NCBI GenBank assembly: GCA_963706325.1
Contig: CAVPLT010000004.1
Span: forward strand, 768,001-832,000
Source: an uncultured Nitrospiraceae bacterium
GTDB lineage: Bacteria > Nitrospirota > Nitrospiria > Nitrospirales > Nitrospiraceae
Reading direction: 5' to 3'
Length of the DNA: 64,000 nucleotides
Positions 3,954-62,511 of the stretch are shown piece by piece (position 1 is the stretch's first letter; each line of letters opens with the position of its first letter). A program made the position numbers and the translations under genes. The notes under the pieces are model-generated. The model worked only from the letters and a program-made list of their open reading frames with translations. It was not told the DNA's origin and made no database searches.

Positions 3954-3998
3954 ATGTTAGAAAGGACTGAATGAATTCGGCACTAGGATCTACCCTAG
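3954..3998 (-). promoter_or_regulatory. Palindromic box plus -10 element facing the zinc-ribbon gene
   Basis: CTAGG-ATCTAC-CCTAG (3983-3998), 23-nt gap, TAACAT on the minus strand (3959-3954). Confidence 0.75.
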
Positions 3999-4029
3999 CC
4001 GAATCACGCTCGAAGGAGTTTCTGTACCG

Positions 4030-4074
4030 CTAGGGTTGTCCCTAGTGGGCAGGGGTATAGTCCATCCGTACAGT
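4030..4074 (+). promoter_or_regulatory. Palindromic box plus -10 element facing the cytochrome c/peroxiredoxin operon
   Basis: CTAGG-GTTGTC-CCTAG (4030-4045), 23-nt gap, TACAGT (4069-4074). Confidence 0.75.
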
Positions 4075-4177
4075 GCCCCACAGCGGGAGAGTGATGCATA
4101 GGCGACCTTGGTGCCATCCCTCTATCTGTTTGCTCAGCCGAAGGACGAATGGACCGTCCAAAAAGTGAGGTGTTCAG

Positions 4178-5635
4178 GTGTGTCTTTTTAAAACACAGGG
4201 TCGAATTCTGGCCTGGTTTTTCGCGATAGGTGGGACGTTTCTGTTCTTGACCGAGGGCGGAGCGGTCGCGCAGCCAGAGAACTCTCAGGATGAAAGACGG
4301 CCTCAAGGGAATCGCGCGATTGAGAAGAAGAAGGAAAAGGGCTTCGAGGGAGTAGATTTTTCTTATGATTTGTTCGGCGCTCCTCCTGGTCAATCCGCCA
4401 CTAAGATTGCAGAAGAAGTCATGGCGAAAGACGTGGCCGACAAGCCCAAGGTGATGGCCAAGCAAGTACAGCTGTTGAAGGAGCGCTACAGACTGGATTG
4501 CAAAATCCACTCCGGCGTTATGATGACCAAAGGAAAGCCGCAGCCCATAGGGCCTACGGTCCAATTGAAAGAAGGCGTCGGCTGGGACAAGTTGTCGGAG
4601 ATGACCCCGGAGGAAATCCGGAAACAGAAAGTATTTCCCGCCGGATTCATGCGATTACCGCACGTCAAACACGATGTCGGTGGGCAGGTCTTTCCTCAAA
4701 AGCAGATCGACCAGTTTCCTCGGCTCGAACGATTCGATGTGGATTTCGACCTTCCGGATTGTTTTCTCCCGGAGTTTCCGCCGCCGATTTTCTTGACGAC
4801 TCATCCTGAGCTGGGTGATGTGTCGCAGGGAGAAGTGTTGAGTGCGGACAATTTCGATCGTTTATTTCGAGGCTTGATCACTCCAGTTCAACTGGATGGC
4901 CTGAGAATGTTGGTGACTCAATTTCCACAAGAGGAGTTCAATCTCACGCCCGATCGGAAATCGCCCAAGCCCAGCCTGGGCGTCGCCTGCTTGGATTGTC
5001 ACGTGAACTTTCATACCACCGGGCAGTTTCATTTAAATCCCGATACGAGACCGCAACGGGATCGACTCAGATTGGACACCGTCAGCTTGAGGGGAATGTT
5101 CAATCAGCAGATTCATGGATCGAAACGAAGCATTCGATCGGTGGAAGATTTTACGGAATTTGAACAGCGCACCGCTTATTTTAACGGCGATCAAATCCGA
5201 GCCATCAAAAAGGGGATGAATGTGATCGATCGGCTGCAGGTCGCCCACATGGCACAGATTCAAAACATGATCGATTTTCCCCCGGCCCCGAAGCTGGATC
5301 CCATGACCGGGCGGCTGGATCGTACCAGGGCCGATCAGCAGGAGATTGCCGGCGAGGAGCTCTTCTTCGGTAAAGCGCGTTGTGCGGCCTGCCATCAACC
5401 TCCCGCCTATACCGATCATATGATGCATGATCTGTTTCTCGAGCGGTTTGGCGCCGAAGCGGACGGGCCGATCAAATCCTTTGCGCTGCGGGGCATCAAG
5501 GATTCACCGCCCTATTTCCATGATGGCCGATTGCTTACGTTGGAGGACACGGTCGAGTTCTTCAACCTCGTCGGTGGGCTGAAGCTGAACCGTGAAGAGA
5601 AAGCTGCGTTGGTCGCTTTCATGCGCGCACTATAA
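4178..5635 (+). CDS. Exported di-heme c-type cytochrome, cytochrome c peroxidase-like
   Basis: Signal peptide; two CxxCH motifs (CLDCH, CAACH); C-terminal SFALRGIKDSPPYFHDGRLLTLEDTVEFFN typical of the CCP/MauG superfamily. Confidence 0.85.
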   Translation: MCLFKTQGRILAWFFAIGGTFLFLTEGGAVAQPENSQDERRPQGNRAIEKKKEKGFEGVDFSYDLFGAPPGQSATKIAEEVMAKDVADKPKVMAKQVQLLKERYRLDCKIHSGVMMTKGKPQPIGPTVQLKEGVGWDKLSEMTPEEIRKQKVFPAGFMRLPHVKHDVGGQVFPQKQIDQFPRLERFDVDFDLPDCFLPEFPPPIFLTTHPELGDVSQGEVLSADNFDRLFRGLITPVQLDGLRMLVTQFPQEEFNLTPDRKSPKPSLGVACLDCHVNFHTTGQFHLNPDTRPQRDRLRLDTVSLRGMFNQQIHGSKRSIRSVEDFTEFEQRTAYFNGDQIRAIKKGMNVIDRLQVAHMAQIQNMIDFPPAPKLDPMTGRLDRTRADQQEIAGEELFFGKARCAACHQPPAYTDHMMHDLFLERFGAEADGPIKSFALRGIKDSPPYFHDGRLLTLEDTVEFFNLVGGLKLNREEKAALVAFMRAL

Positions 5636-5699: not shown

Positions 5700-6278
5700 A
5701 TGGAGAAGGGAATCATGATCGCAATCGGAAAAATTATTCCAGACGGCACCTATCAGGCGTATCACGAAGAAAAGATCCGGCCGGTGGCCCTCAATGAGTT
5801 TCGGGGGCAGTGGCTGATCCTCATGTTTTACCCAGGAGATTTCACCTTTGTCTGTCCGACGGAATTGGCTGAGACCGGCCGACTCTATCCGGAGTTCAAA
5901 AAATTGGGAGCGGAAGTGTGCGGGGTGAGCACCGATTCGGTCTATGTTCATAAGGCCTGGCATGACAGTTCCCCGACGATTCGATCCGTCAACTTCCCTT
6001 TTATCGCCGATACCACCGCCTCCCTCAGCCGGGCATTTGGTGTCTATCTGGAAGATGAGGGCGTGGCGTTGCGGGGGACCTTCCTCATTGATCCCGATGG
6101 TGTCTTGCGCGCGTTTGAAGTCCACGACAACAGCATAGGACGGCACGCCGGGGAAATGCTCCGCAAGCTGCAGGCGGCAATACGGGTGCGTGAGGGTGAG
6201 GGGGAAGTCTGTCCGGCTAGCTGGCAACCGGGACAGTCTACCTTGACCCCAAGCCTCGACCTGGTCGGAAAACTCTAA
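5700..6278 (+). CDS. ahpC: 2-Cys peroxiredoxin (AhpC/TSA)
   Basis: FYPGDFTFVCPTE peroxidatic motif and GEVCPASW resolving motif. Confidence 0.92.
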   Translation: MEKGIMIAIGKIIPDGTYQAYHEEKIRPVALNEFRGQWLILMFYPGDFTFVCPTELAETGRLYPEFKKLGAEVCGVSTDSVYVHKAWHDSSPTIRSVNFPFIADTTASLSRAFGVYLEDEGVALRGTFLIDPDGVLRAFEVHDNSIGRHAGEMLRKLQAAIRVREGEGEVCPASWQPGQSTLTPSLDLVGKL

Positions 6279-8269: not shown

Positions 8270-8314
8270 CTAGGGATTTTGCCAGTTTTCTCACTGTTCC
8301 GATTTTTGTAAGGT
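8270..8314 (+). promoter_or_regulatory. Degenerate palindromic box plus -10 element upstream of the CBM48-glgC-treY operon
   Basis: CTAGG-GATTTT-GCCAG (2 mismatches), 23-nt gap, TAAGGT (8309-8314). Confidence 0.6.
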
Positions 8315-8468: not shown

Positions 8469-8843
8469 ATGGCGAAGCGAAAAGTCAAAGAGTCTTCAGA
8501 AAAAGCAACAGAGCAGCCTTCAGGAATGGGGGCAGTGCTCAGCAATGCCGACGCAGCAACCACGCCATCAACGGCAACGGGCTTGCGTGCGATGGCCGTT
8601 ACATTCGTCGCGCCTGAAGCCAGCGCTGTTTCCATAGTTGGAGATTTCAATGACTGGCGGGTCGCGCGGCATCCATTGGAGATGACGGACGGCCAGAATT
8701 GGCACATCACATTACAGTTGGCGCCTGGCACCTACCAGTACAAATTCTTTATCGATGGCATCCGCTGGGAAGAAGACCCACAAAATCCCAATCGTGTCGT
8801 GAATGAGTTCGGTACCTCCAATTCGATTTTGGAGGTCCAGTAA
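8469..8843 (+). CDS. Glycogen-binding CBM48 (isoamylase early-set/AMPK-like) protein
   Basis: VSIVGDFNDW...LAPGTYQYKFFIDG..W..DP.NP...NS motif. Confidence 0.88.
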   Translation: MAKRKVKESSEKATEQPSGMGAVLSNADAATTPSTATGLRAMAVTFVAPEASAVSIVGDFNDWRVARHPLEMTDGQNWHITLQLAPGTYQYKFFIDGIRWEEDPQNPNRVVNEFGTSNSILEVQ

Positions 8844-8885
8844 GAGACTTGGGCACTGCATTTCATTCCCTTGGCATCGCTCACT

Positions 8886-10145
8886 ATGCAGAGAGATAAG
8901 CGGGTACATGAGCCTCGAGTTCTTGCCTTGATTCTGGCGGGAGGGAAGGGCGAACGCCTTATGCCATTGACGCAGGCGCGCAGCAAGCCCTCAGTTCCTT
9001 TCGGAGGCACGTACCGGATCATCGATTTCGTGCTGAGTAACTTTTATAACTCCGGCATTTTGGGTATGCACGTCATGGTGCAGTACCGGGCGCAATCCCT
9101 CATTGAGCATTTGAGGAAGGCGTGGCGAATCGGTGATGGGGATAGGCAGTTTGTGACAGTCGTCCCTCCACAAATGAATTCCGGGGCCGGGTGGTATGAA
9201 GGAACGGCCGATGCGGTGTTCCAGAATATGAATCTAATTCGTGATTTCACTCCGGATATCGTTGCAGTCTTCGGCGCAGACCATATTTATCGGATGGACA
9301 TTCGCCAGATGTTGCGCTTCCATATGGAATGCGAAGCCGATGTGTCGGTGGCGACGCTCCCGGTTCCGACTGCGTCTGCTGGAGGCTTTGGGATCGTCGA
9401 GGTTGACCGAAACCAGCGAATAGTTGGATTTGAAGAGAAACCACCTGTCCCTAAATCCATTCCGGGAGATCCGACTCGCGCCCTTTCTTCTATGGGGAAT
9501 TACCTGTTCAGTACCGGCTTGTTGATCCAGGCTTTGGAGGAAGATGCCAAGAGCGGAAGCTCGCATGATTTTGGTCGAGACATCTTGCCACGGCTGTTGG
9601 GGACTCATCGCGTGATGGCATACAATTTCCAGGAAAATGAGGTGCCTGGGGTTGCGCATTATGAAGAGCCGGCGTATTGGCGAGATGTCGGCAGCATCCA
9701 GGCCTACTGGCAGGCCAACATGGACCTATTGGGTGACTCACCTGCCTGTAACCTTCGGAACCGCGACTGGCCCATCCGCACAGAACCATCGAGCGGTCCG
9801 CCAGCCAGTTTCGTCAACTGCTATCTTGATCACACTTTGATCGGTGAAGGGAGTCTTTTGATAGAGGCCGATGTCCGGCGTAGTATAATCGGACGCCACG
9901 TGAGGATTGAAGCGGGGGCCCAGATTGAGGATTCCATCATCTTCGATCATACGCATATCGGGTCCGGCGCGAGGCTGCATCGTGTCATCGTCGATCGTCA
10001 GAATGAGATTCGAGCCGGTGTCGAGGTTGGAAGCGGTGACGCAGCATCGAGTTCTGGAATCGCATGGACGACTTCAGGTCTGACGGTCCTGCCCAAACCG
10101 TCCCCACCGCCTCAAGCGCATAAAGATCGGCTGTCGCCCCACTAA
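8886..10145 (+). CDS. glgC: Glucose-1-phosphate adenylyltransferase
   Basis: LAGGKGERLMPLT..RSKPSVPFGG.YRIIDF, GTADAV, DHIYRMD, FEEKP, SMGNY, YWRDVG. Confidence 0.95.
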   Translation: MQRDKRVHEPRVLALILAGGKGERLMPLTQARSKPSVPFGGTYRIIDFVLSNFYNSGILGMHVMVQYRAQSLIEHLRKAWRIGDGDRQFVTVVPPQMNSGAGWYEGTADAVFQNMNLIRDFTPDIVAVFGADHIYRMDIRQMLRFHMECEADVSVATLPVPTASAGGFGIVEVDRNQRIVGFEEKPPVPKSIPGDPTRALSSMGNYLFSTGLLIQALEEDAKSGSSHDFGRDILPRLLGTHRVMAYNFQENEVPGVAHYEEPAYWRDVGSIQAYWQANMDLLGDSPACNLRNRDWPIRTEPSSGPPASFVNCYLDHTLIGEGSLLIEADVRRSIIGRHVRIEAGAQIEDSIIFDHTHIGSGARLHRVIVDRQNEIRAGVEVGSGDAASSSGIAWTTSGLTVLPKPSPPPQAHKDRLSPH

Positions 10146-10174
10146 CCGACCTACATTTTTATTCGTGAGATAAC

Positions 10175-13066
10175 ATGCCACGTATCCCAGTCGCCACCTA
10201 TCGCCTCCAGATGAACCATACGTTCACATTTCGCGACGCCACCCGTGTCGTGCCCTACCTGCATGCATTGGGGATCACGGATTGCTACACCTCGTCTCTC
10301 TTGAAAGCCGTTCCGGGGAGCATGCACGGGTATGACCTTGTGGACCCTGGCGTCTTGAATCCAGAATTAGGAACGGAGCAAGACTTTCAGGATTTTACTG
10401 CGGCGCTTAAGCAGCATGACATGGGACTCTTGATCGATGTCGTGCCGAATCATATGGGGATCAGCACCACGGACAATCGCTGGTGGTGGGATGTGTTGGA
10501 GCACGGGCCCAGCTCGAGGTATGCGACGGCGTTCGATATCGACTGGTCTCCACTGAAGCGGGAATTGGAAGATAAGGTACTCCTCCCGATTCTTGGAGAG
10601 CAATATGGGACGGTGCTGGAAGACCAAGAAATCCGCTTAGTGTATGACAACGGCGGCTTTGTCATTACCTATTACGATCACACGTTTCCTATCGCACCCA
10701 AGTCTTGGACGGCCATCTTATCGTTCCGTTTGGACGAACTTATCGACCGCCTTGGAAAGTCGAACGAGCAAGTACTTGAATTGCAGAGCATCCTCACGGC
10801 ACTACGTAATTTGCCTTCTCGGAATGAGCGCGGCGCGGATCAGGTCGCCGAACGGTATCGCGAAAAGGACATAGTGTGCCGTCGGCTTTCGACCTTGGTC
10901 CTAGGCTGTCCACCCCTTCAGGAACATCTGTTGGCCAACGTCACGACGTATAACGGCACAAAGGGCGACTCCGCGAGTTTTGATCGCCTCGACGCACTGC
11001 TCAACGAACAAAATTACCGACTGGCTTCCTGGAGGGTCGCCTCTGAGGAAATCAATTATCGACGGTTCTTCGATATCAACCAATTGGCTGCCATCCGGAC
11101 CGAGGAGACGAGCGTTTTTCTAGAGTCGCATCAGTTGATATTTCGATTGCTTAAGGACGGTGTGGCAACCGGGTTGCGCATCGATCACGTCGATGGGCTG
11201 TACGACCCCGAACACTACTTGATCCAGCTGCAACAATGGGCGGCTCGTGAGTTGCCTCCCGAGCCAGAAGGGGAGCCGGCCTCACTTTTTATAGTGGTCG
11301 AAAAAATTCTCGGCAAGGGGGAACAGCTTCCAAAGACCTGGCCGGTCGCCGGGACTACCGGCTATGATTTTCTCAATCTAGCTAACGGCTTGTTCGTGAA
11401 TTCGGCTCAGGAACGGGCCATGGATGCGCTGTATACCCGTTTCATCGGGCAGCGGATTGTGTTTGAAGATCTTGTCTATCTCACGAAGAAACTGATCATG
11501 CGCGCCTCGATGTCCAGCGAGATCAATGTACTGGGCCATCAATTGAATCTGCTCTCGGAACGCGATAGACACTATCGGGACTTCACCCTGAATAGCCTCA
11601 CCCACGCGATAGGAGAAATCATTGCTTCCTTTCCAGTGTACCGATCCTACGTCACGTCGGACCAGAAAGAGGTGCTGGAGGGCGATCGGACGTATATTGC
11701 GATTGCGGTGGCGCGCGCCAAGAGGCGCAACCCGGCGCTGAGCAGTCACGTATTCGACTTTGTCCGAGATTTGCTGTTGCGAAAGTTGGACGATCGGACG
11801 AATCTGACCAAAGAAAAACAGATTCGATTCGTGACTAAGTTCCAACAGACCACGAGTCCTGTCACGGCGAAAGGCATCGAGGACACGGCATTTTATCTGT
11901 ACAATCGGCTCACGTCGTTGAACGAAGTCGGTGGTGAGCCCGCACAATTTGGTCTCTCCGTCGAGGCCTTCCACAAACGGATGCGCGAACGCCGCGCAAG
12001 CTGGCCCCATTGTATGCTGGCGACCTCTACGCATGACACCAAGCGTGGGGAAGATGTGCGGGCAAGAATCAACGTGTTGTCGGAGATGCCGGATCGCTGG
12101 AGAAGCGCGATTACTCGGTGGGCGAAGTTCAACAAGCGATTCCGAATTGAAGTCGACGAGATTCACGCGCCGGATCGAAACGAGGAGTACCTCCTGTATC
12201 AAACCCTCGTTGGAGTATGGCCGGTCACCACTATGGACGACGCCCAATACGATGTCTTCATCGGGCGTATCCAAGCCTACATGATCAAGGCGATTCGGGA
12301 AGCCAAGACACATACCAGTTGGGTCAACCCACATGAGGCTTACGAGGAGGCGGTGAGCGGCTTCGTTCGTTCGATCCTCGATCGCTCGACGCGTAATCTG
12401 TTTCTCGAAGACCTGCTTTCTTTTGAGGAATCCCTCTCGGGTCACGGGATGAACAACGGGTTATCCCAGCTCCTCGTGAAACTGACGGCTCCCGGTATCC
12501 CGGACTGTTACCAGGGGACGGAATTGTGGGATCTCACGCTGGTTGACCCGGACAATCGGCGGCCGGTGGATTTCGCCCTTCGATCGGAGATGTTAGGGCA
12601 GCTCAACCAGGTCTGCGAGCAAGACCATGACGACCGCGTTGAGCTGGTGCGCGGCCTCATGAATACGTGGAAGGATAGCCGGATCAAGCTCTACCTCCTC
12701 CATACCGTGCTCCGTCATCGCCGAGGGAATGCACAGCTGTATTTGGAAGGAGATTATGTGCCCCTGGACTGCGAGGGGACATCCCGCTCGCATGTCTGTG
12801 CCTACGCGCGGCTGCACCATGATCTGGCGGTGGTTGTCGTCGTTCCACGTCTGGTGGTCGAGCTCTATGCTGCACCGGGCGCGCCGGACGAAGCGATGTG
12901 GCAGGACACCCGAATAACGGTTCCCTCGTGGAAACCTGGATCAGTCTATCGCAATCTGCTGACCGGGGAACGCCTTGAAACCGTTGCCCAGGGCGAAAGG
13001 CAGGTGCTGCCGCTGGCTCAAATTCTCCAGCACTGCCCTGTGGCGTTGCTCGAACGCTGCTCATAA
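10175..13066 (+). CDS. treY: Malto-oligosyltrehalose synthase
   Basis: PVATYRLQ, HGYD, DVVPNHMG, INYRRFFDIN, GLRIDHVDGL, STHDTKRGED, LVDPDNRRPVD. Confidence 0.95.
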   Translation: MPRIPVATYRLQMNHTFTFRDATRVVPYLHALGITDCYTSSLLKAVPGSMHGYDLVDPGVLNPELGTEQDFQDFTAALKQHDMGLLIDVVPNHMGISTTDNRWWWDVLEHGPSSRYATAFDIDWSPLKRELEDKVLLPILGEQYGTVLEDQEIRLVYDNGGFVITYYDHTFPIAPKSWTAILSFRLDELIDRLGKSNEQVLELQSILTALRNLPSRNERGADQVAERYREKDIVCRRLSTLVLGCPPLQEHLLANVTTYNGTKGDSASFDRLDALLNEQNYRLASWRVASEEINYRRFFDINQLAAIRTEETSVFLESHQLIFRLLKDGVATGLRIDHVDGLYDPEHYLIQLQQWAARELPPEPEGEPASLFIVVEKILGKGEQLPKTWPVAGTTGYDFLNLANGLFVNSAQERAMDALYTRFIGQRIVFEDLVYLTKKLIMRASMSSEINVLGHQLNLLSERDRHYRDFTLNSLTHAIGEIIASFPVYRSYVTSDQKEVLEGDRTYIAIAVARAKRRNPALSSHVFDFVRDLLLRKLDDRTNLTKEKQIRFVTKFQQTTSPVTAKGIEDTAFYLYNRLTSLNEVGGEPAQFGLSVEAFHKRMRERRASWPHCMLATSTHDTKRGEDVRARINVLSEMPDRWRSAITRWAKFNKRFRIEVDEIHAPDRNEEYLLYQTLVGVWPVTTMDDAQYDVFIGRIQAYMIKAIREAKTHTSWVNPHEAYEEAVSGFVRSILDRSTRNLFLEDLLSFEESLSGHGMNNGLSQLLVKLTAPGIPDCYQGTELWDLTLVDPDNRRPVDFALRSEMLGQLNQVCEQDHDDRVELVRGLMNTWKDSRIKLYLLHTVLRHRRGNAQLYLEGDYVPLDCEGTSRSHVCAYARLHHDLAVVVVVPRLVVELYAAPGAPDEAMWQDTRITVPSWKPGSVYRNLLTGERLETVAQGERQVLPLAQILQHCPVALLERCS

Positions 13067-13259: not shown

Positions 13260-13322
13260 CCAGGAATCACGCTAGTTCTAGGGTACTCCCTAGCTGTTGG
13301 TTAGATGCCACGGCGTTAAGGA
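13260..13322 (+). promoter_or_regulatory. Tandem palindromic boxes upstream of the PRC-barrel genes
   Basis: CCAGG-AATCAC-GCTAG (13260-13275), then the perfect CTAGG-GTACTC-CCTAG (13278-13293); TAAGGA(T) lies 23 nt downstream. Confidence 0.65.
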
Positions 13323-14740: not shown

Positions 14741-15844
14741 TCACTGCTGGACCGTAGCGGCAGTAGTTCTGTTTTGTTCTGGGCCAGTGGCCCGGTCCGA
14801 GTTTGAGCCAGTCTTGGCAGACGCTCCCGACACCTGCTCATAGACTCGCAGGTAGTCGCGAACCATGCGTTCCGTTGAAAAGCGCGAATCGAAGACCTGT
14901 CGGCAGCGCGTTCGCTGGAGCACAGAGATATGTCGTACGGATTGCACCATTTCCTCAAACGTCTCACATACAAATCCCGTTACGCCGTGATCGATAATTT
15001 CAGGCACGGATCCTCGCCGGTAAGCAATGACAGGGGTCCCGCAGGCCAGGGATTCGATAAAGACTAGGCCGAACGGTTCCGGCCAGTCGTAGGGACATAA
15101 CTGCGCGTAGGCATCTCCCAAAAAGTCGTCCTTTTCCAGGTCCGTGATCTCGCCGACATATTCAATCAAGGGATGGTCGAGGAGCGGTTCGATCACGGCG
15201 CGATAGTACTCGAAATTACTCGGATCAATTTTGGCTCCAATCCGCAGCGGCATGTCTACACGTTTGGCAATTTCAATAGCTTGATCAAGCCCTTTTTCCG
15301 GGGCCACTCTGCCGAGAAAGGCCAGGTACTTACCTTGGCCGGCATGGAAAGAATAGAGGTTCGTGGGCAGGCCATGATGAACCGTGGCTTGCCAATTCAA
15401 AAATGGGAGGGGTGCCCGTTGGGCCTCTGAAATCGATACGACCGGAAGATCTGCAAATGTTTTAAACACCGGAACGAGTTCCGGCAGATCCAGCCGCGCG
15501 TGAAGAGTCGTCAGGACGGGCGTGGGGCTTCGTCGGGCCAAAGGAAAAGGCAGGAACTCCAAATGTGAATGAATGATATCGAAATCTTTTGCCGAGCTGA
15601 ACACTCGCTCCAGCATAGCCGTCGGAGGCGCGTCATAGTTGGTGATGACTTTAGACAGGCGCAGCGCTTCAGGACACATGGGTACTAGTGTGGCTGTCGT
15701 CGTAGAATCGCCGCTGGCAAATAGGGTCACATCATGACCCTGGCGGACCAGCTCTTCAGTGATGAAGGACACCACTCGCTCTGTGCCTCCATACAAGGTC
15801 GGTGGAACACTTTCCCAAAGCGGCGCCACTTGCGCAATCTTCAT
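14741..15844 (-). CDS. GT4 family glycosyltransferase
   Basis: MKIAQVAPLWESVPP..YGGTERVV, FLGRVAPEKG, EPFGLVFIESLACGTPVI; start at ATG 15844 (GGAGT RBS). Confidence 0.92.
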   Translation of the reverse strand: MKIAQVAPLWESVPPTLYGGTERVVSFITEELVRQGHDVTLFASGDSTTTATLVPMCPEALRLSKVITNYDAPPTAMLERVFSSAKDFDIIHSHLEFLPFPLARRSPTPVLTTLHARLDLPELVPVFKTFADLPVVSISEAQRAPLPFLNWQATVHHGLPTNLYSFHAGQGKYLAFLGRVAPEKGLDQAIEIAKRVDMPLRIGAKIDPSNFEYYRAVIEPLLDHPLIEYVGEITDLEKDDFLGDAYAQLCPYDWPEPFGLVFIESLACGTPVIAYRRGSVPEIIDHGVTGFVCETFEEMVQSVRHISVLQRTRCRQVFDSRFSTERMVRDYLRVYEQVSGASAKTGSNSDRATGPEQNRTTAATVQQ

Positions 15845-15893: not shown

Positions 15894-15938
15894 ATCTTAG
15901 CTGCGGTACTCGCGCGCCCGAACTAGGTGGTTCCCTAG
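15894..15938 (-). promoter_or_regulatory. Palindromic box plus -10 element facing the GT4 gene
   Basis: CTAGG-TGGTTC-CCTAG (15923-15938), 23-nt gap, TAAGAT on the minus strand. Confidence 0.75.
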
Positions 15939-16390: not shown

Positions 16391-16714
16391 CTATTTCGAC
16401 GGAGCGGGCTGAGTACCTTGATTCGGCGCTGGCATGGCATTGCCCGAACGAGACCTCTTCTCTGGGTCAATAGACATTTTCGGATCCACGACCGGCGGGG
16501 GGACGACGGCCTTGGGATCGGGGATGGTTGCCGGCTGTTTCTGAATGCCAGGATCGATCCTGGATGGGGGAGCTGGAGGTGCCGGTTGTGGTGTTTGGGC
16601 AGGAGGCGGTTGATTGGGATGACTTGGCCCTGAGCCTGGGTCAGCCGCTGCTACCGAGACGCTAAACCCAGTGAGCAAGATGACGGCTGATAAAACAGGG
16701 ACTCGTACGAACAT
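16391..16714 (-). CDS. Exported proline-rich small protein
   Basis: Signal peptide MFVRVPVLSAVILLTGFSVSVAAA followed by a Pro/Gln-rich body; GGAGGTGA RBS. Confidence 0.7.
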   Translation of the reverse strand: MFVRVPVLSAVILLTGFSVSVAAADPGSGPSHPNQPPPAQTPQPAPPAPPSRIDPGIQKQPATIPDPKAVVPPPVVDPKMSIDPEKRSRSGNAMPAPNQGTQPAPSK

Positions 16715-16748
16715 CTTCACCTCCCGGAATGAAGTCGCTGGCAAACAT

Positions 16749-50631: not shown

Positions 50632-50638
50632 GGGGGAA

Positions 50639-52564
50639 ATGAGCATGAAAGGGTCGGGCAGAGCGGGCGCGCCGAAGCATTCACCTGTCCATCAAGAGCC
50701 GGTTGGTTCCCGCCACCGCCTCGGAGCCCAGGTGACGGCAGAAGGGATCTCTTTCCGTTGCTGGGCGCCGAAACCCACGCGGGTGGAGGTTATCCTTCAC
50801 CCTCAAGGAACCATTTATGCCATGACCAAAGAGGACGATGGCCATTGGGTTGGAGTCGTCCCCGAGGCGACGGCCGGTATGACCTACCGATACCGATTGG
50901 ATGGAAGGGAACTCTTCCCGGATCCTTGCTCACGGTTTCAACCTGAAGGACCCCATGGGCCGTCATTGATTGTGGACGCTGACGCCTTTGAGTGGAGAGA
51001 TCACGATTGGCTGGGCCTGACCATGCATGGTCAAGTGATCTACGAATTGCACATCGGCACGTTGACGCCGGAGGGAACGTTTGACTCAGCCATCGCTCAT
51101 CTTGACGAACTAAAAGACCTGGGCATCACTATAATAGAAGTCATGCCGGTGGCGGAATTTCCGGGTCGATGGAATTGGGGCTATGACGGAGTGGGGCTGT
51201 ATGCTCCGGCCCATGTCTATGGTGATCCTGAAGCCTTCAAGCGATTCGTCGACGAAGCGCACGCGCGAGGGCTCGGCGTGATACTCGACGTGGTCTATAA
51301 CCATCTGGGCCCGGATGGAAATTATCTGCCCGCCTTCAGTGATCATTATTTTACAGATCGCTATCCCAACGAATGGGGACAAGCCATCAATTTCGACGGG
51401 CCTGGCTCCCAGGGAGCGCGCGAGTTTTTCATTGAGAACGCCTGTTATTGGATCGAGGAGTTTCATTTGGACGGGCTCAGACTGGATGCGGTGCATGCGT
51501 TCCATGATGCCGGTCCCCTTCATGTCGTCGCGGAGCTGTCTCAAGCGGCAAGGAAAGCGGCCGGAAAACGATCGATTATTCTCATAGCCGAATGTGAAGC
51601 GCAGTGGGTCTGCACCATTCAACCGGTCGCGCAACAGGGGTGGGGATTGGATGGAGTATGGAGCGAGGATTTCCACCATGCGGCGCGCGTGGCGGCCACC
51701 GGGCGAAGCGAAGGCTATTTCACCGACTATCGCGGCGCGCCGCAGGAGTTCATTTCATGCGTCAAGCGGGCATTTTTGTACCAAGGGCAACGATACCAAT
51801 GGCAAGAGAAACCGCGTGGGACCGTCGTCGCGCGCGAGCCTGCGGAAAGCTTCGTGTTTTTTACCCAAAATCACGATCAGATTGCCAATCAATTACGTGG
51901 AGATCGGCTGCATCAGAAAACCAGTCCGGGCGTGTCGCGCGCCTTGACGGCCCTGCTGCTCCTGGCTCCGGAAACGCCGATGTTGTTCATGGGGCAGGAG
52001 TTTGCAGCTTCTGCTCCGTTTTTGTTCTTCGCCGATTTTCCGCCTGGCGAACTCGCCCGGCAAATTCGTGAGGGGAGGAAAGGGTTTCTCGCCCAATTTC
52101 CCAGCTATGGGTCGCCGGACGCACAGGCAGCCATTGCCGATCCTTGCGATCCCGCCGTCTTTCAGCGCTCCAAACTCGATTGGTCGGAACGTGAACGGAA
52201 CGGCGAGTGTTATCGGCTACACCAGGATCTGCTTCGGCTCCGTCGCGAAGATCCGGTCATCGCGCAGCAAGCGCGGAATCGGGTAGAGGGCGCCGTGATC
52301 GGACCGTCGGCCTTCGTACTGCGTTACGCCGGCCAGGAGGGAAACGACCGGCTTCTTCTCATCAATCTTGGGGCAGATTGTAATTATCGTCCAGCTCCGG
52401 AACCTCTGCTCGCTCCATCGGAGGGCTGCGCCTGGTCGCTCGTCTGGTCGAGTGACGCTCCGGAGTACGGAGGTCCCGGCGTGATCGAGCCGTTGACGGA
52501 AACTGGCTGGTTTGTACCGGGTGGATCGGCGGCTTTCTATGCCGCGCAGGACCGTGACGTGTGA
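50639..52564 (+). CDS. treZ: Malto-oligosyltrehalose trehalohydrolase
   Basis: PDPCSRFQPEGPHGPS, YELHIGT, WGYDGV, DVVYNHLGPDGNY, GLRLDAVHA, QNHDQIAN. Confidence 0.93.
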   Translation: MSMKGSGRAGAPKHSPVHQEPVGSRHRLGAQVTAEGISFRCWAPKPTRVEVILHPQGTIYAMTKEDDGHWVGVVPEATAGMTYRYRLDGRELFPDPCSRFQPEGPHGPSLIVDADAFEWRDHDWLGLTMHGQVIYELHIGTLTPEGTFDSAIAHLDELKDLGITIIEVMPVAEFPGRWNWGYDGVGLYAPAHVYGDPEAFKRFVDEAHARGLGVILDVVYNHLGPDGNYLPAFSDHYFTDRYPNEWGQAINFDGPGSQGAREFFIENACYWIEEFHLDGLRLDAVHAFHDAGPLHVVAELSQAARKAAGKRSIILIAECEAQWVCTIQPVAQQGWGLDGVWSEDFHHAARVAATGRSEGYFTDYRGAPQEFISCVKRAFLYQGQRYQWQEKPRGTVVAREPAESFVFFTQNHDQIANQLRGDRLHQKTSPGVSRALTALLLLAPETPMLFMGQEFAASAPFLFFADFPPGELARQIREGRKGFLAQFPSYGSPDAQAAIADPCDPAVFQRSKLDWSERERNGECYRLHQDLLRLRREDPVIAQQARNRVEGAVIGPSAFVLRYAGQEGNDRLLLINLGADCNYRPAPEPLLAPSEGCAWSLVWSSDAPEYGGPGVIEPLTETGWFVPGGSAAFYAAQDRDV

Positions 52565-52592
52565 GGCGACAGGCACCGAGTCCGAACAGGGA

Positions 52593-54644
52593 ATGATGAG
52601 TTGCCCATTAAAGGCCGACGACATGATTTTATCAGTACCCGCCGACCATCTCCGTGATAGCCATAATCTACTCTCCAAGGAGTGGCTGGTGACGAATGGC
52701 CTGGGTGGTTATGCATCCGGGACGTTGCTGTGTGCTCCCACGCGACGATATCACGGGATATTTGTACCGGATCTCCCGGCGCCATGGGGGCGGACGGTGA
52801 TGATTCCCCGGTTGGACGAAGCAGTCATCGTCGACGGACAATCCCTCCTGCTGAGCGGCGTCGAGTTTGAAGACGGACGCGTGCAAAGCGACCTCACGGA
52901 AGTGCTCGCCGAATTCAGCCGTGAATGGCACACACCGATATGGCGTTGTGTATTCAAAGGGCGCCGCCTTGAAAAGCGGGTCATCATGCCGTACGGCTAC
53001 AACTCAGTCTATGTGGAATATCGCTTGCTAGAGGGTGATCCGATTCGGCTGCATATCCGCCCGTTTATCACATTTCGAATGTTGGATGCGCAGTTGCATG
53101 AAGCCAAGCGGCCTCCCTTTCCGCTCACCGTGCTCGATGGGCGTTACGAAATGCATCTCTGCGAAGGCGCCTCGTCACTCAAGCTGTGCATGCGGCCGCA
53201 CTGCGGGCAATTCATTGCCGACGCGCTCGTGAGTCGCGGGGTGTCGTATCGAGTGGATCGTGACCGCGGCTCTGAACATATCGAGGACCTTGCAAGCCCG
53301 GGATATTTTGGCGCGGATCTGACTTCAGCTCGACCGGTTGCGTTTGTTGCGAGCACCGAGTCGTGGGAGCTCCTCGAGTTCAATTCGGAAGCGGTCTTTG
53401 AGGCGGAAGCACAGCGGCTACAGAAACTGTCCCCGCTTCAAGAGCGAGGCCATGATGAATTGGAAGGGTTGTTGGCGCTCGCGGCGGACCAATTCATTGT
53501 GCTGCCAGGGTCGCGCTTGAATGAGCAGGCCCTTGCGCGCGCTTCCGGTGATGAAGCGCGCACGGTCATTGCCGGCTATCACTGGTTCACCGATTGGGGC
53601 CGCGATACCATGATCAGTCTGGAAGGGCTCACCCTCTGTACCGGACGCTACCGCGAGGCGCGCTCGATTCTGCGCACGTTTGCCAATTATATCGAGGATG
53701 GATTGCTGCCGAATCTTTTTCCCGAGGGGCAACGCAAGGCGCTCTACCATACTGTCGATGCGACGCTCTGGTACTTTCATGCGCTGGATCGGTATCAGCG
53801 GGTCACCGGAGATACCGAGCTGGTCGTCGATCTCTGATGCCTACATTGAAATCCGTGATCGAACATCATGTGAAGGGCACGCATTTCGGTATCGGCGTGG
53901 ATTCGCGCGATGGTCTGTTGCATGCCGGAGCCGAAGGATATCAACTCACCTGGATGGACGCGAAGGTGGATGGATGGGTCGTCACGCCGCGGCGCGGCAA
54001 GCCGGTCGAGATTCAAGCCCTCTGGTTTAATGCGCTCTGTTGCATGGTGGAGTGGGGAAAAATGGCCGGGGAGAACCAGCCAGCCCTGGGCGGAGATGGC
54101 TGAACTGGCCAGGCGATCGTTTAACGATCGATTCTGGCGACAGGATGCCGGCTGCCTGTTCGATGTCATTGAGGGCGAGCAGGGGAATGATACGAGTTTT
54201 CGTCCTAACCAGATTGTGGCGATTGCGCTCCAGCATCCGATTTTGGAAGAGCAGCGATGGCGCGCAGTCGTCGATGCGGTGGCGGACAAGCTCCTCACAC
54301 CGGTTGGCCTGCGTACTCTGTCGAGAGACCATCGCGACTACAAGCCGATGTACTTCGGGGACCTTCGAGCGAGAGACGCCGCCTATCATCAGGGAACGGT
54401 GTGGGCCTGGTTGATCGGACCCTTTATCGATGCCTGGCTGAAAGTCTACAAGGATGCGTCAAAGGCGAGAGGCATGCTGGAAGGGTTCCACTCGCACCTG
54501 GTGGAAGTCGGAATCGGCACGGTCAGCGAAATTTTCGATGCAGAACCTCCCTACCATCCACGCGGGTGTATCGCTCAAGCCTGGAGCGTGGCGGAGGTGT
54601 TGCGGGTCTGCATAAAAACGCGGTTGGCCCGAGAGAATCCGTGA
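52593..54644 (+). CDS. Amylo-alpha-1,6-glucosidase (GDE family) with two mutually compensating frameshifts near 53835 and 54070
   Basis: EWLVTNGLGGYASGT, IAGYHWFTDWGRDTMISL, then QLTWMDAK..WVVTPRRGKPVEIQALW, then RPNQ, AYHQGTVWAWLIG and AQAWSVAE, spread over three ORF segments. Confidence 0.85.
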
Positions 54645-54694
54645 GTGGAGTAATTCGTCTCGAGCTGGACAGGGTGCCTAGGGCGAGCCGGCAC

Positions 54695-55432
54695 ATGCCC
54701 TATGTGCGCATCGGCACTTCAGGATGGCATTACGGGCATTGGCGAGGTCCCTACTACCCACCGAGCGTTCCCCCGCGAGCACTGTTGAATTATTATGCGC
54801 GAGATTTCGATACTGTAGAGATCAACAACAGTTTTTACCGCCTGCCTTCGACGACCACCTTTGACACATGGAGCAAAGCCACGCCGGAGGGATTTTGCTT
54901 TGCCGTCAAGGCAAGCCGCTTCCTGACCCATCGCAAAAAATTGTTGGATCCCGAGCCGGCGCTTGCCCGGTTGTTGGAAGCAGCCGAGAGATTAGGCGGA
55001 AAGCTCGGTCCGATTTTGTTTCAATTGCCACCTAATTGGCGTTGCCATGTCGCTCGGCTCGAAGCCTTTCTCCGCGCGCTTCCGGCAGGGCAACGGTATA
55101 CCGTCGAATTCCGTGACCAGAGCTGGCATACCCGACAGGTGTTGGAATTGCTGCGGGAATATAATGTGGCGTTTTGTATCTATGAGTTGGCCGGGATTCG
55201 CTCCCCGATCGAGGTCACTGCCGATTTTGTCTATGTCCGGCTCCACGGGCCAGGGAACAAGTATCAGGGCGACTATTCGATCAGCTCGCTGAAATCCTGG
55301 GCCGCCCATGTCGAGCGATGGGTAAAGTCACGCTGTCACGTGTACGTATACTTCGATAACGATCAGGCGGGATATGCGGTGAAGAACGCCCGAGAACTCA
55401 AAAGCATCATCACGCCGGAGCCCGATGTGTAA
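54695..55432 (+). CDS. DUF72 domain protein
   Basis: IGTSGWHY.HW...YYP, TVEINNSFYRLP, LFQLPP, YVRLHG, YVYFDND. Confidence 0.92.
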   Translation: MPYVRIGTSGWHYGHWRGPYYPPSVPPRALLNYYARDFDTVEINNSFYRLPSTTTFDTWSKATPEGFCFAVKASRFLTHRKKLLDPEPALARLLEAAERLGGKLGPILFQLPPNWRCHVARLEAFLRALPAGQRYTVEFRDQSWHTRQVLELLREYNVAFCIYELAGIRSPIEVTADFVYVRLHGPGNKYQGDYSISSLKSWAAHVERWVKSRCHVYVYFDNDQAGYAVKNARELKSIITPEPDV

Positions 55433-58076: not shown

Positions 58077-58121
58077 CTAGGGTACCCACTAGCTCCAACC
58101 TGCAGTATTGACCGGTACAGT
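58077..58121 (+). promoter_or_regulatory. Palindromic box (1 mismatch) plus -10 element upstream of the OMP-Slp-ligD run
   Basis: CTAGG-GTACCC-ACTAG (58077-58092), 23-nt gap, TACAGT. Confidence 0.7.
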
Positions 58122-58414: not shown

Positions 58415-59053
58415 ATGATGACCGCGCGGTCCCCGACGATCACTATTCTGTTAGTGGTCCTGCTGACGGCAGGGTTTCTAGCAGCGCGTACCGCCACGGC
58501 AGAATGGTATGTGGCCGGACAGTTCGGCGCGAACTTTGCGGATCAACTCAGCGATATTCGAGGGACCGGCAGTTTGAGCGGATTTCGCGCGCCAGATTTC
58601 GATCTGCAGAACTCCTTCGTCTATGGAGGCAAGCTCGGCATGTTTCCAGGCAACGGATGGTTCGGTCTGGAACTTGATGTGTTCAACAGCACCCCCCATA
58701 TTAAGAATCTCGACAATGTTCCAGGTATTCACATGCGGGTGACAAACGTGGGAGTGAATTTGCTGGCACGGTATCCTGGCGTGACATTCCAACCGTATAT
58801 TGGGATCGGGGCCGGTGCGGCCATTGCGCGAATCGGGGACTCCGCAACTACCCAGGCCAATACTGACGTCGCATCCGCCTTCAACCTCTTGGTGGGCATC
58901 AGAGCCTTCGTCACGCCGTATGTGGCGGTGTTCACCGAATATAAATATAGCCAGTCGACGTTAGGATTCGACCAGGCATTCGGGCCGACCGGTGGATTCA
59001 ATGGACATTATGATGCGCACATTTTGGTTACGGGTCTCTCCTATCATTTTTGA
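58415..59053 (+). CDS. Small outer-membrane beta-barrel protein (OmpA-like transmembrane type)
   Basis: Signal peptide, WYVAGQFG, FQPYIGIGAG, and C-terminal GLSYHF. Confidence 0.85.
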   Translation: MMTARSPTITILLVVLLTAGFLAARTATAEWYVAGQFGANFADQLSDIRGTGSLSGFRAPDFDLQNSFVYGGKLGMFPGNGWFGLELDVFNSTPHIKNLDNVPGIHMRVTNVGVNLLARYPGVTFQPYIGIGAGAAIARIGDSATTQANTDVASAFNLLVGIRAFVTPYVAVFTEYKYSQSTLGFDQAFGPTGGFNGHYDAHILVTGLSYHF

Positions 59054-59789: not shown

Positions 59790-59824
59790 TGTGACAGGCG
59801 CGGCCTCGGCGGCGAAGGAGCCAC

Positions 59825-62428
59825 ATGGGTCTTCGGCAGTATTGGAAAAAACGCGACTTCAAGCAAACACCCGAACCGCGAGGGAAAGAGGTTCCGCCTC
59901 AAGGCCGGTTGCAGTTCGTCATTCAAAAACATGCCGCAAGCCGTCTCCATTATGACTTTCGGCTCGAATTGGATGGCACGTTGAAAAGCTGGGCCGTCCC
60001 CAAGGGGCCCAGCTTGGATCCTGCACAGAAACGGCTGGCCGTGCACGTTGAAGATCATCCGCTTGACTACGCAAGCTTTGAGGGGATCATTCCTGCCAAA
60101 CAATACGGCGGCGGAACGGTGCTGCTCTGGGACCGGGGTTACTGGGAAGCCATTGGCGATGCAGGATCGAGTTACCGTCGCGGACGACTCAAGTTCGTGC
60201 TGCACGGGGAAAAACTGCGCGGTATCTGGAATCTGGTTCGCATGGGTGGTCGACAGGAAGCGGGCAAGGAAAATTGGCTCCTGATTAAGGAAAAGGATGA
60301 GGAAGCGCGCAGTGGGAAAAAAAGCGATGTAACACAGAGCCTTCCGGCGAGCGTCGCAACTGGAAAGAGCATCGAGCAAATTGCCACCGGAAAACATGCG
60401 GTGTGGCAATCTAATAGACCCTCGGATAAACAAGGCCGGGGTGCCAAGGCGCGGCGCCCCGTTAAGAGTGTTTCCGCTCCAGGCGCTGTCAAGGCCGCCC
60501 AAGAAAAATGGGTTGTCCCGCAATTGGCGACGTTGGTCACCGCCTCTCCCGAAGGAGAAGAATGGGTGCACGAACTCAAGTATGACGGGTATCGCATCTT
60601 GTGCCGGATCCAAGGCGGCAGGGCCACATTGCTGACTCGAAATGGAAACGATTGGACCGCCAAGCTGCCCCATATCGCCCGCGCGGCCGCAGACCTTGCG
60701 GTGAAAACAGCCTGGCTTGACGGCGAAGTCGTCGCCTTACTGCCGGACGGGCGCGTCAGCTTCCAAACCCTGCAGAATGCATTCGATACGCATTCCGACA
60801 GCAATTTGGTTTATTTCGTATTTGACCTTCTGTATCTCGACGGCTACGACTTACGGCCCGCCTTGCTGATTGAGCGTAAACGTCTTTTATCGGCCCTGTT
60901 TCAAGACAGCTCCCCGACGGATCTCATTCACTATAGCGATCACATCACCGGCAAGGGGGACGTCGCCTTCACCGAAGCCTGCCGAAGCGGCATGGAGGGG
61001 TTGATTGCCAAACGCGCCGATGCGTCCTATGTGGGGGGGCGAAATCGCAACTGGGTCAAGGTGAAGTGCGGGCGGCGGCAGGAGTTCGTGATCGGGGGAT
61101 TTACCGATCCCTCCGGCTCACGTAGCGGCTTTGGGGCATTGCTGCTCGGGGTCTATGATACGCATGGCCAGCTGCGATTTTCAGGACGCACGGGAACCGG
61201 CTTCTCCCAGCGTTCCTTGAAGGAACTTCACAGCCGACTCAAGAAGCTGGAACAAGATACGTCTCCGTTTTTAAACCCGCCCAGAGAGAGAGGTCTGCAT
61301 TGGGTGAAGCCGACACTGGTAGCCGAGGTCGCTTTCGCTGAATGGACGAATGAAGACCAGTTGAGGCAAGCGTCGTTTCAAGGCCTTCGCGAGGACAAAG
61401 ATCCCCGGAAGGTGATCCACGAGCGACCAGCGCCCGAGGTTTCGCCTGAGATGACGGACAAGCCTTCTCGCTCTCGATCGTGGCGTCGGAAAGAAAAATC
61501 AAAAGGACGACCGTCTTCGAGGAGCGATTCCCAGGAGAGCGCGAATGTCGTCAGCGGTGTGACCCTCAGCCATCCGGACCGAGTGTTGTTTCCCGAGCAA
61601 AGCGTCACCAAACTCGCGCTGGCGCGATATTACGAATCTATCAGCGAATGGATCATCCCGCACGTGGAAGATCGACCATTGACGCTTGTTCGCTGCCCGG
61701 AGGGATACAACAAGGAGTGTTTTTATCAGAAACATGCGAACGATCGCATACCCGAGGCGGTCGGACGCGTCGACATTCCCGAAGATGACGGGACCGCTTC
61801 CTATATGGTGGCGGATTCGCCGGCTGCGCTGGTGGGGCTGGTTCAAATGGGCGTGTTGGAGCTGCATACGTGGGGGTCGAAGCGGGATAAACTCGAACGT
61901 CCGGACCGCATGATCCTCGATCTCGACCCAGATCCCGCGGTCGAGTGGTCTGCCGTCATTGAAGGCGCGCAACTGCTGCGCACCCTGCTGAATGAATTGA
62001 ACCTTGCCTCGTTCGTCAAGACGACGGGCGGGAAGGGCCTTCATATCGTGGTGCCGCTGCAACGCGTCCATACCTGGGACGAGGTGAAGACGTTCTCGAA
62101 AGCGCTTGCCGATCATCTTGTCCATACGATCCCGGAACGTTTCCTCGCAAATATGTCGAAGCACAAGCGCAAGGGGAAAATCTATATCGATTATTTACGC
62201 AACGCGCGGGGCGCGACGGCGGTGGCCGCCTATTCCACCCGGGCTAGGCAAGGCGCGCCGATATCCGTGCCGTTAGCCTGGGAGGAACTGTCGGTCGACC
62301 TGCGATCCGACCATTTCACCATGACCAATTTGCCGGAACGGCTCGGACAGCTGCGTAAAGATCCTTGGAAGGATTATTTTACGGCGAAACAGCGCATCAG
62401 CCGCAAGATGCTCATGAGTTTGGTGTAA
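59825..62428 (+). CDS. ligD: NHEJ DNA ligase D (phosphoesterase - ligase - polymerase)
   Basis: FVIQKHAASRLHYDFRLE (phosphoesterase), ELKYDGYR and EGLIAKR (ligase), LSHPDRVLFP, DLDP, KTTGGKGLH and IDYLRN (polymerase). Confidence 0.96.
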   Translation: MGLRQYWKKRDFKQTPEPRGKEVPPQGRLQFVIQKHAASRLHYDFRLELDGTLKSWAVPKGPSLDPAQKRLAVHVEDHPLDYASFEGIIPAKQYGGGTVLLWDRGYWEAIGDAGSSYRRGRLKFVLHGEKLRGIWNLVRMGGRQEAGKENWLLIKEKDEEARSGKKSDVTQSLPASVATGKSIEQIATGKHAVWQSNRPSDKQGRGAKARRPVKSVSAPGAVKAAQEKWVVPQLATLVTASPEGEEWVHELKYDGYRILCRIQGGRATLLTRNGNDWTAKLPHIARAAADLAVKTAWLDGEVVALLPDGRVSFQTLQNAFDTHSDSNLVYFVFDLLYLDGYDLRPALLIERKRLLSALFQDSSPTDLIHYSDHITGKGDVAFTEACRSGMEGLIAKRADASYVGGRNRNWVKVKCGRRQEFVIGGFTDPSGSRSGFGALLLGVYDTHGQLRFSGRTGTGFSQRSLKELHSRLKKLEQDTSPFLNPPRERGLHWVKPTLVAEVAFAEWTNEDQLRQASFQGLREDKDPRKVIHERPAPEVSPEMTDKPSRSRSWRRKEKSKGRPSSRSDSQESANVVSGVTLSHPDRVLFPEQSVTKLALARYYESISEWIIPHVEDRPLTLVRCPEGYNKECFYQKHANDRIPEAVGRVDIPEDDGTASYMVADSPAALVGLVQMGVLELHTWGSKRDKLERPDRMILDLDPDPAVEWSAVIEGAQLLRTLLNELNLASFVKTTGGKGLHIVVPLQRVHTWDEVKTFSKALADHLVHTIPERFLANMSKHKRKGKIYIDYLRNARGATAVAAYSTRARQGAPISVPLAWEELSVDLRSDHFTMTNLPERLGQLRKDPWKDYFTAKQRISRKMLMSLV

Positions 62429-62466
62429 CTCTATGAATGGGTGGCTAGGGTGGTTAGGTCAGCGAC

Positions 62467-62511
62467 CTGGGGGGAGTGCTAGTAGAGTCAATTCGGCGGT
62501 CCTGGTATCAG
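62467..62511 (+). promoter_or_regulatory. Degenerate palindromic box plus extended -10-like element
   Basis: CTGGG-GGGAGT-GCTAG (2 mismatches), 23-nt gap, TG-g-TATCAG(T). Confidence 0.55.

Follow-up and report, generated by a model that had tools for sequence, protein, structure and literature searches.

Organization of the window

The window analysed here is a stretch of 64,000 nucleotides (nt) from a Nitrospiraceae genome (G000:C4:768001-832000; the source genome G000 measures 4.24 Mb and is 96% complete). The element under study is a 16-letter palindrome, CTAGG-N6-CCTAG, hereafter the box, which recurs in front of genes of the window with a -10-like hexamer of the form TAnnnT, or a variant starting with TA, at a fixed distance. 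The window is a dense island of stress genes, encoding glycogen and trehalose enzymes, superoxide dismutase, ferritin, AhpC, Ku, LigD, topoisomerase IB, PRC barrels, and CsbD, and the same island also encodes two NarL-type regulators and three hybrid kinases. Fifteen of the 91 intergenic boxes of the genome (at most one mismatch) sit in the window, which is the maximum over all 64-kb bins.

The box and its 23-nt spacing

The spacing of box and hexamer is not due to chance. An initial annotation of the window had listed 21 hexamers at fixed distances from a box, counted from box edge to hexamer, and all of them were found at the distance and on the strand claimed. Twelve are full TAnnnT hexamers at 23 nt; TA-initiated variants follow at 23 nt from 13278 (+), 20403 (+), 23755 (-), 28751 (+), and 62467 (+), and TAnnnT lies at 22 nt from 33033, 43434, and 48314 and at 24 nt from 16779. 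Among window boxes with at most one mismatch, TAnnnT stands at 23 nt in 9 of 17, and a TA hexamer at 22-24 nt in 15 of 17.

The fixed geometry is also real beyond the window. According to our own gene calls, by which 19.5% of the genome is intergenic, all 22 perfect boxes are intergenic; TAnnnT lies exactly 23 nt from 11 of these 22 (5 of 13 outside the window). Outside the window it occurs at 23 nt in 21 of 102 boxes with at most one mismatch: 16 of 82 gene-facing box sides carry it, versus an upstream-intergenic background of 0.0089 (P ~4e-17), and 5 of 70 sides that do not face a gene. In a 735-kb sample of congeners the regions had been picked around perfect boxes, hence only unselected one-mismatch boxes were counted for spacing; of these 99, the hexamer is at 23 nt in 42, at 22 nt in 9, and at 24 nt in 13, with about 1 expected per distance. 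The gap between the arms is specific as well, since genome-wide a gap of 6 gives 22 copies and gaps of 4, 5, 7, and 8 give 1, 0, 5, and 0; four of the five gap-7 copies resemble tRNA T-arm sequence (by eye).

Footprinting was carried out on orthologous promoters of fetched congener regions, whose members are kin and not independent. Nineteen of the 21 sites retain the box and its 22-24-nt spacing, the number of orthologous promoters that do so ranging from 2 to 14 per site. Across orthologues the spacers, flanks, and leader lengths vary, and the distance from the box to the -10 stays fixed. Thus, of the roughly 20 start sites that had been predicted, 19 of 21 survive footprinting, whereas the one at 21938 fails.

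It could be argued that the palindrome is a hairpin, a repeat, or a mutation artefact and not a protein site, as its 5-bp arms are perfect and CTAG is strongly under-represented in the genome (3959 versus ~16000 expected). However, a 5-bp stem is weak, changes in the arms are polar and not compensatory, and spacer and flanks vary freely across species while the -10 distance is fixed. Rfam and tRNA scans of the window gave no match. Such an artefact is extremely improbable, being largely excluded by footprinting.

Seven box pairs in G000 overlap with a 12-bp offset and have one CTAG in common (e.g. C7:791817 and 791829).

Sites in the window

The sites are given below by position and strand, with predicted start, footprint count, and targets; starts are predicted about 7 nt beyond the hexamer, with a margin of about 2 nt. 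The counts for 20403, 21938, 23755, 23783, 25566, and 28751 are among the matches listed.

3954-3998, minus strand: perfect box (3983-3998) and -10 TAACAT; predicted start ~3947; kept in 4/4 orthologues; target, a 73-amino-acid (aa) open reading frame (ORF) with a Cys pair at 3703-3924, no Pfam match
4030-4074, plus strand: perfect box and -10 TACAGT; predicted start ~4081; footprinted, a mis-sliced row (L046) being left out; targets, a 485-aa ORF at 4178-5635 and AhpC/TSA at 5715-6278
8270-8314, plus strand: two-mismatch box and -10 TAAGGT; predicted start ~8321; kept in 2/2; targets, CBM48, GlgC-like, and TreY-like genes (8469-13066)
13278-13322, plus strand: perfect box and TA variant TAAGGA; kept in 8/11; PRC-barrel genes from 13522
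15894-15938, minus strand: perfect box and -10 TAAGAT; predicted start ~15887; kept in 9/10; glycosyltransferase at 14741-15844
16749-16794, minus strand: one-mismatch box and -10 TACAAT at 24 nt; kept in 2/2; 109-aa ORF at 16391-16720
20251-20295, minus strand: two-mismatch box and -10 TATAGT; kept in 9/9; ORF at 19407-20240
20403-20447, plus strand: one-mismatch box and TATAAC; kept in 14/14 among the matches listed; ORF at 20506-21840
21936-21944, plus strand: conserved extended -10-like TG-n-TAGGAT, not a box, upstream of the regulator gene at 22072, whose start is predicted at ~21951 instead of 21989
22072-22758, plus strand: NarL/FixJ-family response regulator with helix S-I-K-T-I-E-F-H-K and intact phospho-acceptor Asp/Thr/Lys; candidate island activator
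22944-23600, minus strand: second NarL/FixJ regulator with helix S-T-K-A-V-E-F-H-K, 44% identical to the 22072 regulator, behind box 23755
23726-23770, minus strand: one-mismatch box (23755) and TATGAA; kept in 11/14 among the matches listed; before the second regulator
23783-23827, plus strand: one-mismatch box and -10 TAACGT; predicted start ~23834; footprinted; Fe/Mn superoxide dismutase at 23881-24537
25566-25610, plus strand: perfect box and -10 TAACCT; predicted start ~25617; kept in 14/14 among the matches listed; targets, ferritin-like gene at 25910-26452 and GlgX-like gene
28751-28795, plus strand: two-mismatch box and TATAAG; kept in 13/14 among the matches listed; CsbD-like gene at 29062-29301
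31313-32899: PAS-HisKA_3-HATPase-receiver kinase, candidate cognate sensor
33005-33048, minus strand: one-mismatch box and TAAAAT at 22 nt; footprinted; before the kinase at 31313-32899
33067-33082, no strand: perfect box that lacks a TA hexamer at 22-24 nt in both directions; probably a second site further upstream
33254-33298, plus strand: perfect box and -10 TATAGT; predicted start ~33305; kept in 4/5; targets, poly-HAMP hybrid kinase at 33378-39942 (frameshifted) and HisKA_3 hybrid kinase at 40013-42046
43406-43449, minus strand: two-mismatch box and TAGAGT at 22 nt; kept in 9/9; DUF326 Cys-rich protein at 42951-43358
44457-44501, minus strand: perfect box and -10 TACGAT; kept in 7/9; ORF at 43944-44408
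48286-48329, minus strand: perfect box and TAGGCT at 22 nt; kept in 5/6; flavin adenine dinucleotide (FAD)/Rieske oxidoreductase at 46680-48227
48363-48407, plus strand: one-mismatch box and TATTTT; predicted start ~48414; kept in 4/7; targets, Ku, topoisomerase IB, TreZ-like, debranching enzyme, and DUF72 genes (48659-55432)
58077-58121, plus strand: one-mismatch box and TACAGT; outer-membrane barrel at 58415-59053; no orthologue in the fetched regions
62467-62511, plus strand: two-mismatch box and TATCAG; kept in 3/3; 85-aa Cys-pair ORF at 62557-62814

The initial annotation had also taken 21938 for a box, with three mismatches. This was not borne out, as none of 14 orthologous upstream regions among the matches listed keeps a box and a TA hexamer at 22-24 nt. 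An autoregulatory box at this position was rejected, because the alignment shows its letters to be the conserved extended -10 of gene 22072. A conserved CCTCGC-TATC-like element lies about 17 nt upstream of that extended -10 (window about 21912-21944, and orthologues), and may represent either a different promoter class or a second regulator site.

Compared with congeners, the genes for the poly-HAMP hybrid kinase, a GH15 trehalase-like protein, and the debranching enzyme are split by 1-2-base insertions (window 35852-35858, ~18270, 53828-53839, and ~54074), possibly as a result of long-read assembly errors rather than as pseudogenes.

Promoter anatomy and polarity of the box

Of 111 hexamer-oriented sites, 91 have a T directly behind the box, against 44 that have the mirror-image A just before it (p 1e-10); because of this difference, that T behaves like the opening base of a -35 element. 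The -35 slot of these sites has a mean of 2.4 of 6 matches to TTGACA, with the best fit at offset 0, and it comes near consensus at a site shared across the genus. Therefore, the claim that a mostly non-consensus -35 abuts the box holds with regard to its degeneracy, except that the first T is retained. Overall, the box promoters show the layout of a primary-sigma (sigma70) promoter, in which a TTGACA-like -35 precedes the TAnnnT -10 by about 17 nt. In variant boxes with a gap of 5 or 7, the distance of about 23 nt is still measured from the proximal arm (by eye), so the register seems to be fixed by that arm.

The box is polar in Nitrospira. Of 82 congener sites, 73 have G at position 6 and 19 have C at its mirror, and a T-to-C change at position 2 was seen 16 times, the mirror change never. 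In 44 Acidobacteriota sites, G at position 6 and C at its mirror are even (22 and 22). Polymerase contacts or an asymmetric dimer are candidate causes of the polarity. Of 64 promoters predicted in the genome, 57 face a gene start, versus 95 of 167 boxes without a -10, a difference that speaks for activation.

A site that touches the -35 could hinder polymerase binding, and the box might thus be a repressor operator that blocks polymerase beside the -35 and is released under stress; RcsB, in the available part of one report, both activates and represses (PMC7913699). However, the sharp 22-24-nt register, the near absence of boxes over the -10 or the start, and the poor -35 form the pattern of an activator, and RcsB sites upstream of starts are mostly activating (14 of 17; PMC7913699). 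A repressor operator is therefore very improbable.

Candidate regulator and its link to the box

The factor that reads the box is likely a NarL/FixJ-family response regulator with the helix S-x-K-T-V-E-F-H-K. The genome contains 25 GerE-domain genes, seven of which have an E/A-F-H helix, and a receiver plus GerE regulator with an intact phospho-site co-occurs with the box. Proteins 94% identical to the 22072 regulator are labelled Nitrospira sp. A Lys that is invariant in regulator alignment A1 presumably matches Lys174 of NarL.

The genus-wide box site lies directly downstream of a HisKA_3 kinase and a core regulator with the E-F-H (EFH) helix in 15 of 16 fetched regions, and this core regulator, which in G000 lies at C7:696210-696851, is 85-90% identical across the genus. 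The EFH subfamily was found in 24/24 congeners and in 2/16 genomes of other families, the closer of which has boxes beside its regulator; the box-23-TAnnnT pattern was found in 24/24 congeners versus 0/16 genomes of other families. A small Cys-pair ORF (G000:C7:695796-696005, minus strand) comes after the core regulator in most congeners and lies ahead of a resistance-nodulation-division (RND) efflux operon. Further box-driven small ORFs with paired cysteines and no clear Pfam family lie in the window (3703-3924, 62557-62814, and 43944-44408).

The strongest test of the link was protein-first; it started from the best 80 of at least 583 metagenome matches to the helix and, after removal of 7 near-identical core orthologues, covered 73 loci. 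A box (at most one mismatch) occurs within 2 kb in 51 of them, whereas gaps of 3, 4, 5, 7, 8, and 9 give 1-5 loci. TAnnnT stands at 23 nt for 18 of 54 boxes at these helix-chosen loci, many others having TA variants at 23 nt, and at some loci another box stands about 22 bp upstream. In a four-genome comparison of G000 with three Acidobacteriota genomes that had been chosen for having boxes (GerE loci examined: 25/25, 26/26, 30/36, and 30/34), a box lies within 1.5 kb of 8 of 14 GerE genes with an EFH or AFH helix versus 7 of 97 others, unassigned helices being counted among the others (Fisher p 3e-5).

Conceivably, the reader of the box is another DNA-binding protein, and the EFH regulators adjoin boxes merely as part of the modules that it targets. 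All links are genomic, some EFH regulators have no boxes, a few other GerE genes do lie near boxes, and many boxes are downstream of the regulator gene and drive its neighbour instead. However, the link is seen in two phyla and extends to two FixJ-like regulators of Burkholderiales that share the helix (L105, L133), and the architecture and position of the box match solved cases of the NarL/FixJ family, which makes another protein quite improbable as the reader.

Near-complete congeners with the island regulator pair have 13 and 18 sites and those without it have 3 and 1. Because of these counts the pair (22072 and 22944) is favoured for the large regulon, and the evidence points to its members as the best candidates, although island and pair travel together.

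The Burkholderiales boxes adjoin their regulators with the K-T-V-E-F-H helix, hinting that the recognition code crosses subfamilies. A recurrent module consists of a kinase, an EFH regulator, a box, and a receiver-only paralogue of ~150 aa (L094:1603-2028, L206, L207, L235-L238, L252, L253); the paralogue is a candidate phosphate sink or relay.

Which sigma factor

The initial annotation ascribed the box promoters to the housekeeping sigma. Reading by the primary sigma is favoured, not proven: the -10 context and the Acidobacteriota genomes support it, and two further sigmas are encoded beside RpoD, namely an RpoS-like sigma (G000:C5:309549-310511), whose best NCBIfam match is RpoS, below cut-off, and a second RpoD-like sigma (G000:C1:819881-821149, minus strand, 422 aa).

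The same activator and box could instead serve promoters that are read by one of these two sigmas. Both are present, the box targets are typical RpoS/SigB-type genes, and the combination of a degenerate -35 and a TAnnnT -10 is compatible with RpoS promoters. However, C at -13, a signature of RpoS promoters, was not found to be enriched in the box promoters of G000 or of congeners: it occurs in 25 of 62 box promoters versus 92 of 283 consensus-35 promoters of the same genome (p 0.24), and in 29% of 115 congener box promoters. The 500 nt upstream of each of the two sigma genes are free of boxes with at most one mismatch. In three Acidobacteriota genomes that share the geometry, just one region-1.2 sigma was detected per genome, which is weak evidence because the region-1.2 search missed the second RpoD-like sigma of G000. 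Overall, an alternative sigma appears unlikely, and the primary sigma is retained as the preferred reader.

Predicted stress regulon

The 64 predicted promoters in G000, 60 of which are intergenic, come from a weight matrix for which congeners alone served as training set and which was used with self-chosen thresholds. Of 40 out-of-window targets that were scanned, 23 match Pfam. They include three hemerythrins, YtxH, an RsbR-type STAS protein, DoxX, YceI, and a second GlgX-like enzyme, as well as an alcohol dehydrogenase, an aldo-keto reductase, two PAS-HisKA_3 kinases, and MEDS, GAF, and receiver proteins. The hallmark stress families among all box targets are CsbD, YtxH, hemerythrins, ferritin, superoxide dismutase, AhpC, glycogen and trehalose enzymes, Ku, DoxX, YceI, RsbR-STAS, and PRC barrels, and several sensor kinases also lie behind boxes. 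Such gene families mark the general stress regulons of SigB, RpoS, or EcfG. The box targets are therefore predicted to form a general stress regulon, a label that rests on gene families.

Comparison with known systems

Measured in the same way in E. coli K-12, yeaR has a 16-bp NarL site and, after 23 nt, the hexamer TACCCT, whereas at rprA 22 nt separate the RcsB site from the -10; the osmC region gave no RcsB-consensus match with the pattern used and was left out of this calibration. The published systems below are compared on the available part of each paper cited.

The box resembles the NarL site at yeaR in that a NarL/FixJ-family regulator is concerned, the 16-bp palindrome is centred at -43.5 against the -35, 23 nt separate it from the -10, and a T opens the -35. 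It differs in site sequence and recognition helix, and yeaR belongs to a nitrate regulon. In the cryo-electron microscopy structure, NarL at -43.5 of yeaR contacts the C-terminal domain of the polymerase alpha subunit (alpha-CTD) and makes no contact with sigma region 4, an arrangement termed 'non-canonical class II', unlike CAP/CRP at class II promoters, which acts from -41.5 with a sigma-4 contact (PMC10853779). For the Nitrospira box, the alpha-CTD contact and the lack of a sigma-4 contact may be presumed by likeness.

The initial annotation had placed the box at the class II position used by CRP. An activator site abutting a weak -35 would still be the best reading; however, the centre at -43.5 makes it a non-canonical site of the NarL/yeaR type. 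The box shares with CRP class II sites a dimeric activator beside a weak -35 at a fixed distance. It does not belong to the canonical CRP/FNR class II, the CRP centre being 2 bp closer, and its consensus is another, not TGTGA-N6-TCACA-like; it also tracks GerE-type, not Crp-type, genes.

Like other NarL/FixJ sites, the box is a 14-16-bp inverted repeat whose arms are spaced much as in RcsB and NarL sites. RcsB, which is among the closest solved relatives of the window regulators, shares with it the position just upstream of the -35, a stress regulon, and the arm architecture of the inner 14 bp (the RcsB homodimer box being TN(G/A)GA-N4-TC(T/C)NA; PMC7913699). It differs in the distance at rprA (22 versus 23 nt), and the Nitrospira box adds a near-invariant outer C/G. 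The two window regulators are not RcsB orthologues, scoring 88 and 77 bits with NF008098 against a cut-off of 235.

The arms of the staphylococcal NreC site are presumably spaced as in the Nitrospira box. NreC is likewise a NarL-type regulator that activates from a GC-rich palindrome, and differs in its oxygen/nitrate regulon (PMC8139620, PMC5694512). The motif of SecR is different (PMC13199381).

The SigB, RpoS, and EcfG/PhyR stress regulons comprise the same kinds of targets, multiple sensor kinases, and receiver-only proteins. In contrast, the output here appears to be a DNA-binding activator on ordinary -10 promoters, with no dedicated sigma. The available part of a Nitrospirales genome survey contains no description of the box or regulon (PMC12342949), and a literature search, with most subscription papers and supplements outside its reach, found no description of the box, the regulon, or a mapped Nitrospira stress regulator. 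The promoter mechanism is already textbook, as for NarL at yeaR; what appears to be new is the box, with its likely cognate subfamily and the predicted stress regulon.

Proposed mechanism

The box is probably the site of a phosphorylated NarL/FixJ dimer with the helix S-x-K-T-V-E-F-H-K, which would activate housekeeping-sigma stress promoters from -43.5. This reading builds on the observed motif, spacing, conservation, weak -35 that keeps its first T, target families, and genomic linkage of box and regulator. A possible scheme is as follows. HisKA_3-type PAS kinases, several of them behind boxes, would phosphorylate the regulator, the dimer of which would bind just upstream of the -35 and recruit RNA polymerase via the alpha-CTD, as NarL does at yeaR, offsetting the poor -35. 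The two island regulators may serve the large regulon, 22072 being apparently box-independent and 22944 box-driven, and the core paralogue found across the genus, whose helix is the same, is probably another reader of the box. Feedback loops would arise from those kinases, regulators, and receiver-only genes that are themselves box-driven.

Several points weigh against this reading. A full TAnnnT at 23 nt is present for only about a third of boxes, and in even draws the perfect box is rare in Acidobacteriota, coming up in 1 of 60 across the phylum and in 8 of 80 in a single order, with the 23-nt spacing in 4 of these 8. The Acidobacteriota genomes of the GerE comparison were a chosen set; 6 of its 14 EFH/AFH regulators have no nearby box, one non-EFH regulator (L336) has two, and the linkage could arise from regulators being targets of another factor. 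Any of seven EFH/AFH paralogues of the genome may be the exact protein. Alternative sigmas are encoded, and the region-1.2 search is incomplete as described. The stress label draws on gene families, and 17 of the 40 scanned out-of-window targets have no Pfam match at E 1e-7. Five RNA runs hold small shares of window 20000-26500, and the four examined are sparse contigs that cannot show starts.

A wider reading, put forward tentatively, joins these elements. The general stress response of soil Nitrospira may consist of PAS/HAMP kinases and NarL-type activators acting on the housekeeping polymerase, with no stress sigma as output. The helix S-x-K-T-V-E-F-H-K reading CTAGG-N6-CCTAG may be a portable code in Nitrospirota, some Acidobacteriota, and some Betaproteobacteria, and the polar box alone may predict direction, possibly via an oriented heterodimer of the two island regulators.

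Nitrospira play a key role in nitrification and are difficult to modify genetically. For these bacteria the analysis offers a motif, candidate regulators and kinases by name, and about 60 promoters whose start sites are predicted. In addition, a large NarL/FixJ subfamily that is so far uncharacterised gains a likely DNA site, through which regulons would become readable in the genomes of Acidobacteriota and other soil organisms.

Distribution beyond the genus

A GTDB scan for the box followed by T, 22 nt, and TAnnnT gave at least 123 loci; among the matches listed, at least 49 are from Acidobacteriota, at least 19 from Nitrospirota, and at least 9 from Betaproteobacteria. When gaps of 15-35 were allowed in five of those genomes, 28 of 44 matches were at 23 nt, or 20 of 36 once the selecting matches were removed; several are copies of one promoter. 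An even draw in the family of the window gave 46 of 120. The box-spacing pattern is patchy in Acidobacteriota, and a regulon common to that phylum was rejected by the even draws there (1/60 and 8/80).

One Acidobacteriota genome (G042) has about 8 near-identical copies of one box-promoter, scattered over its contigs (e.g. C2:803512, C7:1407363, C10:75482), suggesting a duplicated promoter-gene cassette. Three Caulobacter species (L074, L091, L099) share a tandem box with the 23-nt geometry, and in both loci that were translated the protein encoded behind it has, judged by eye, LysM-like repeats.

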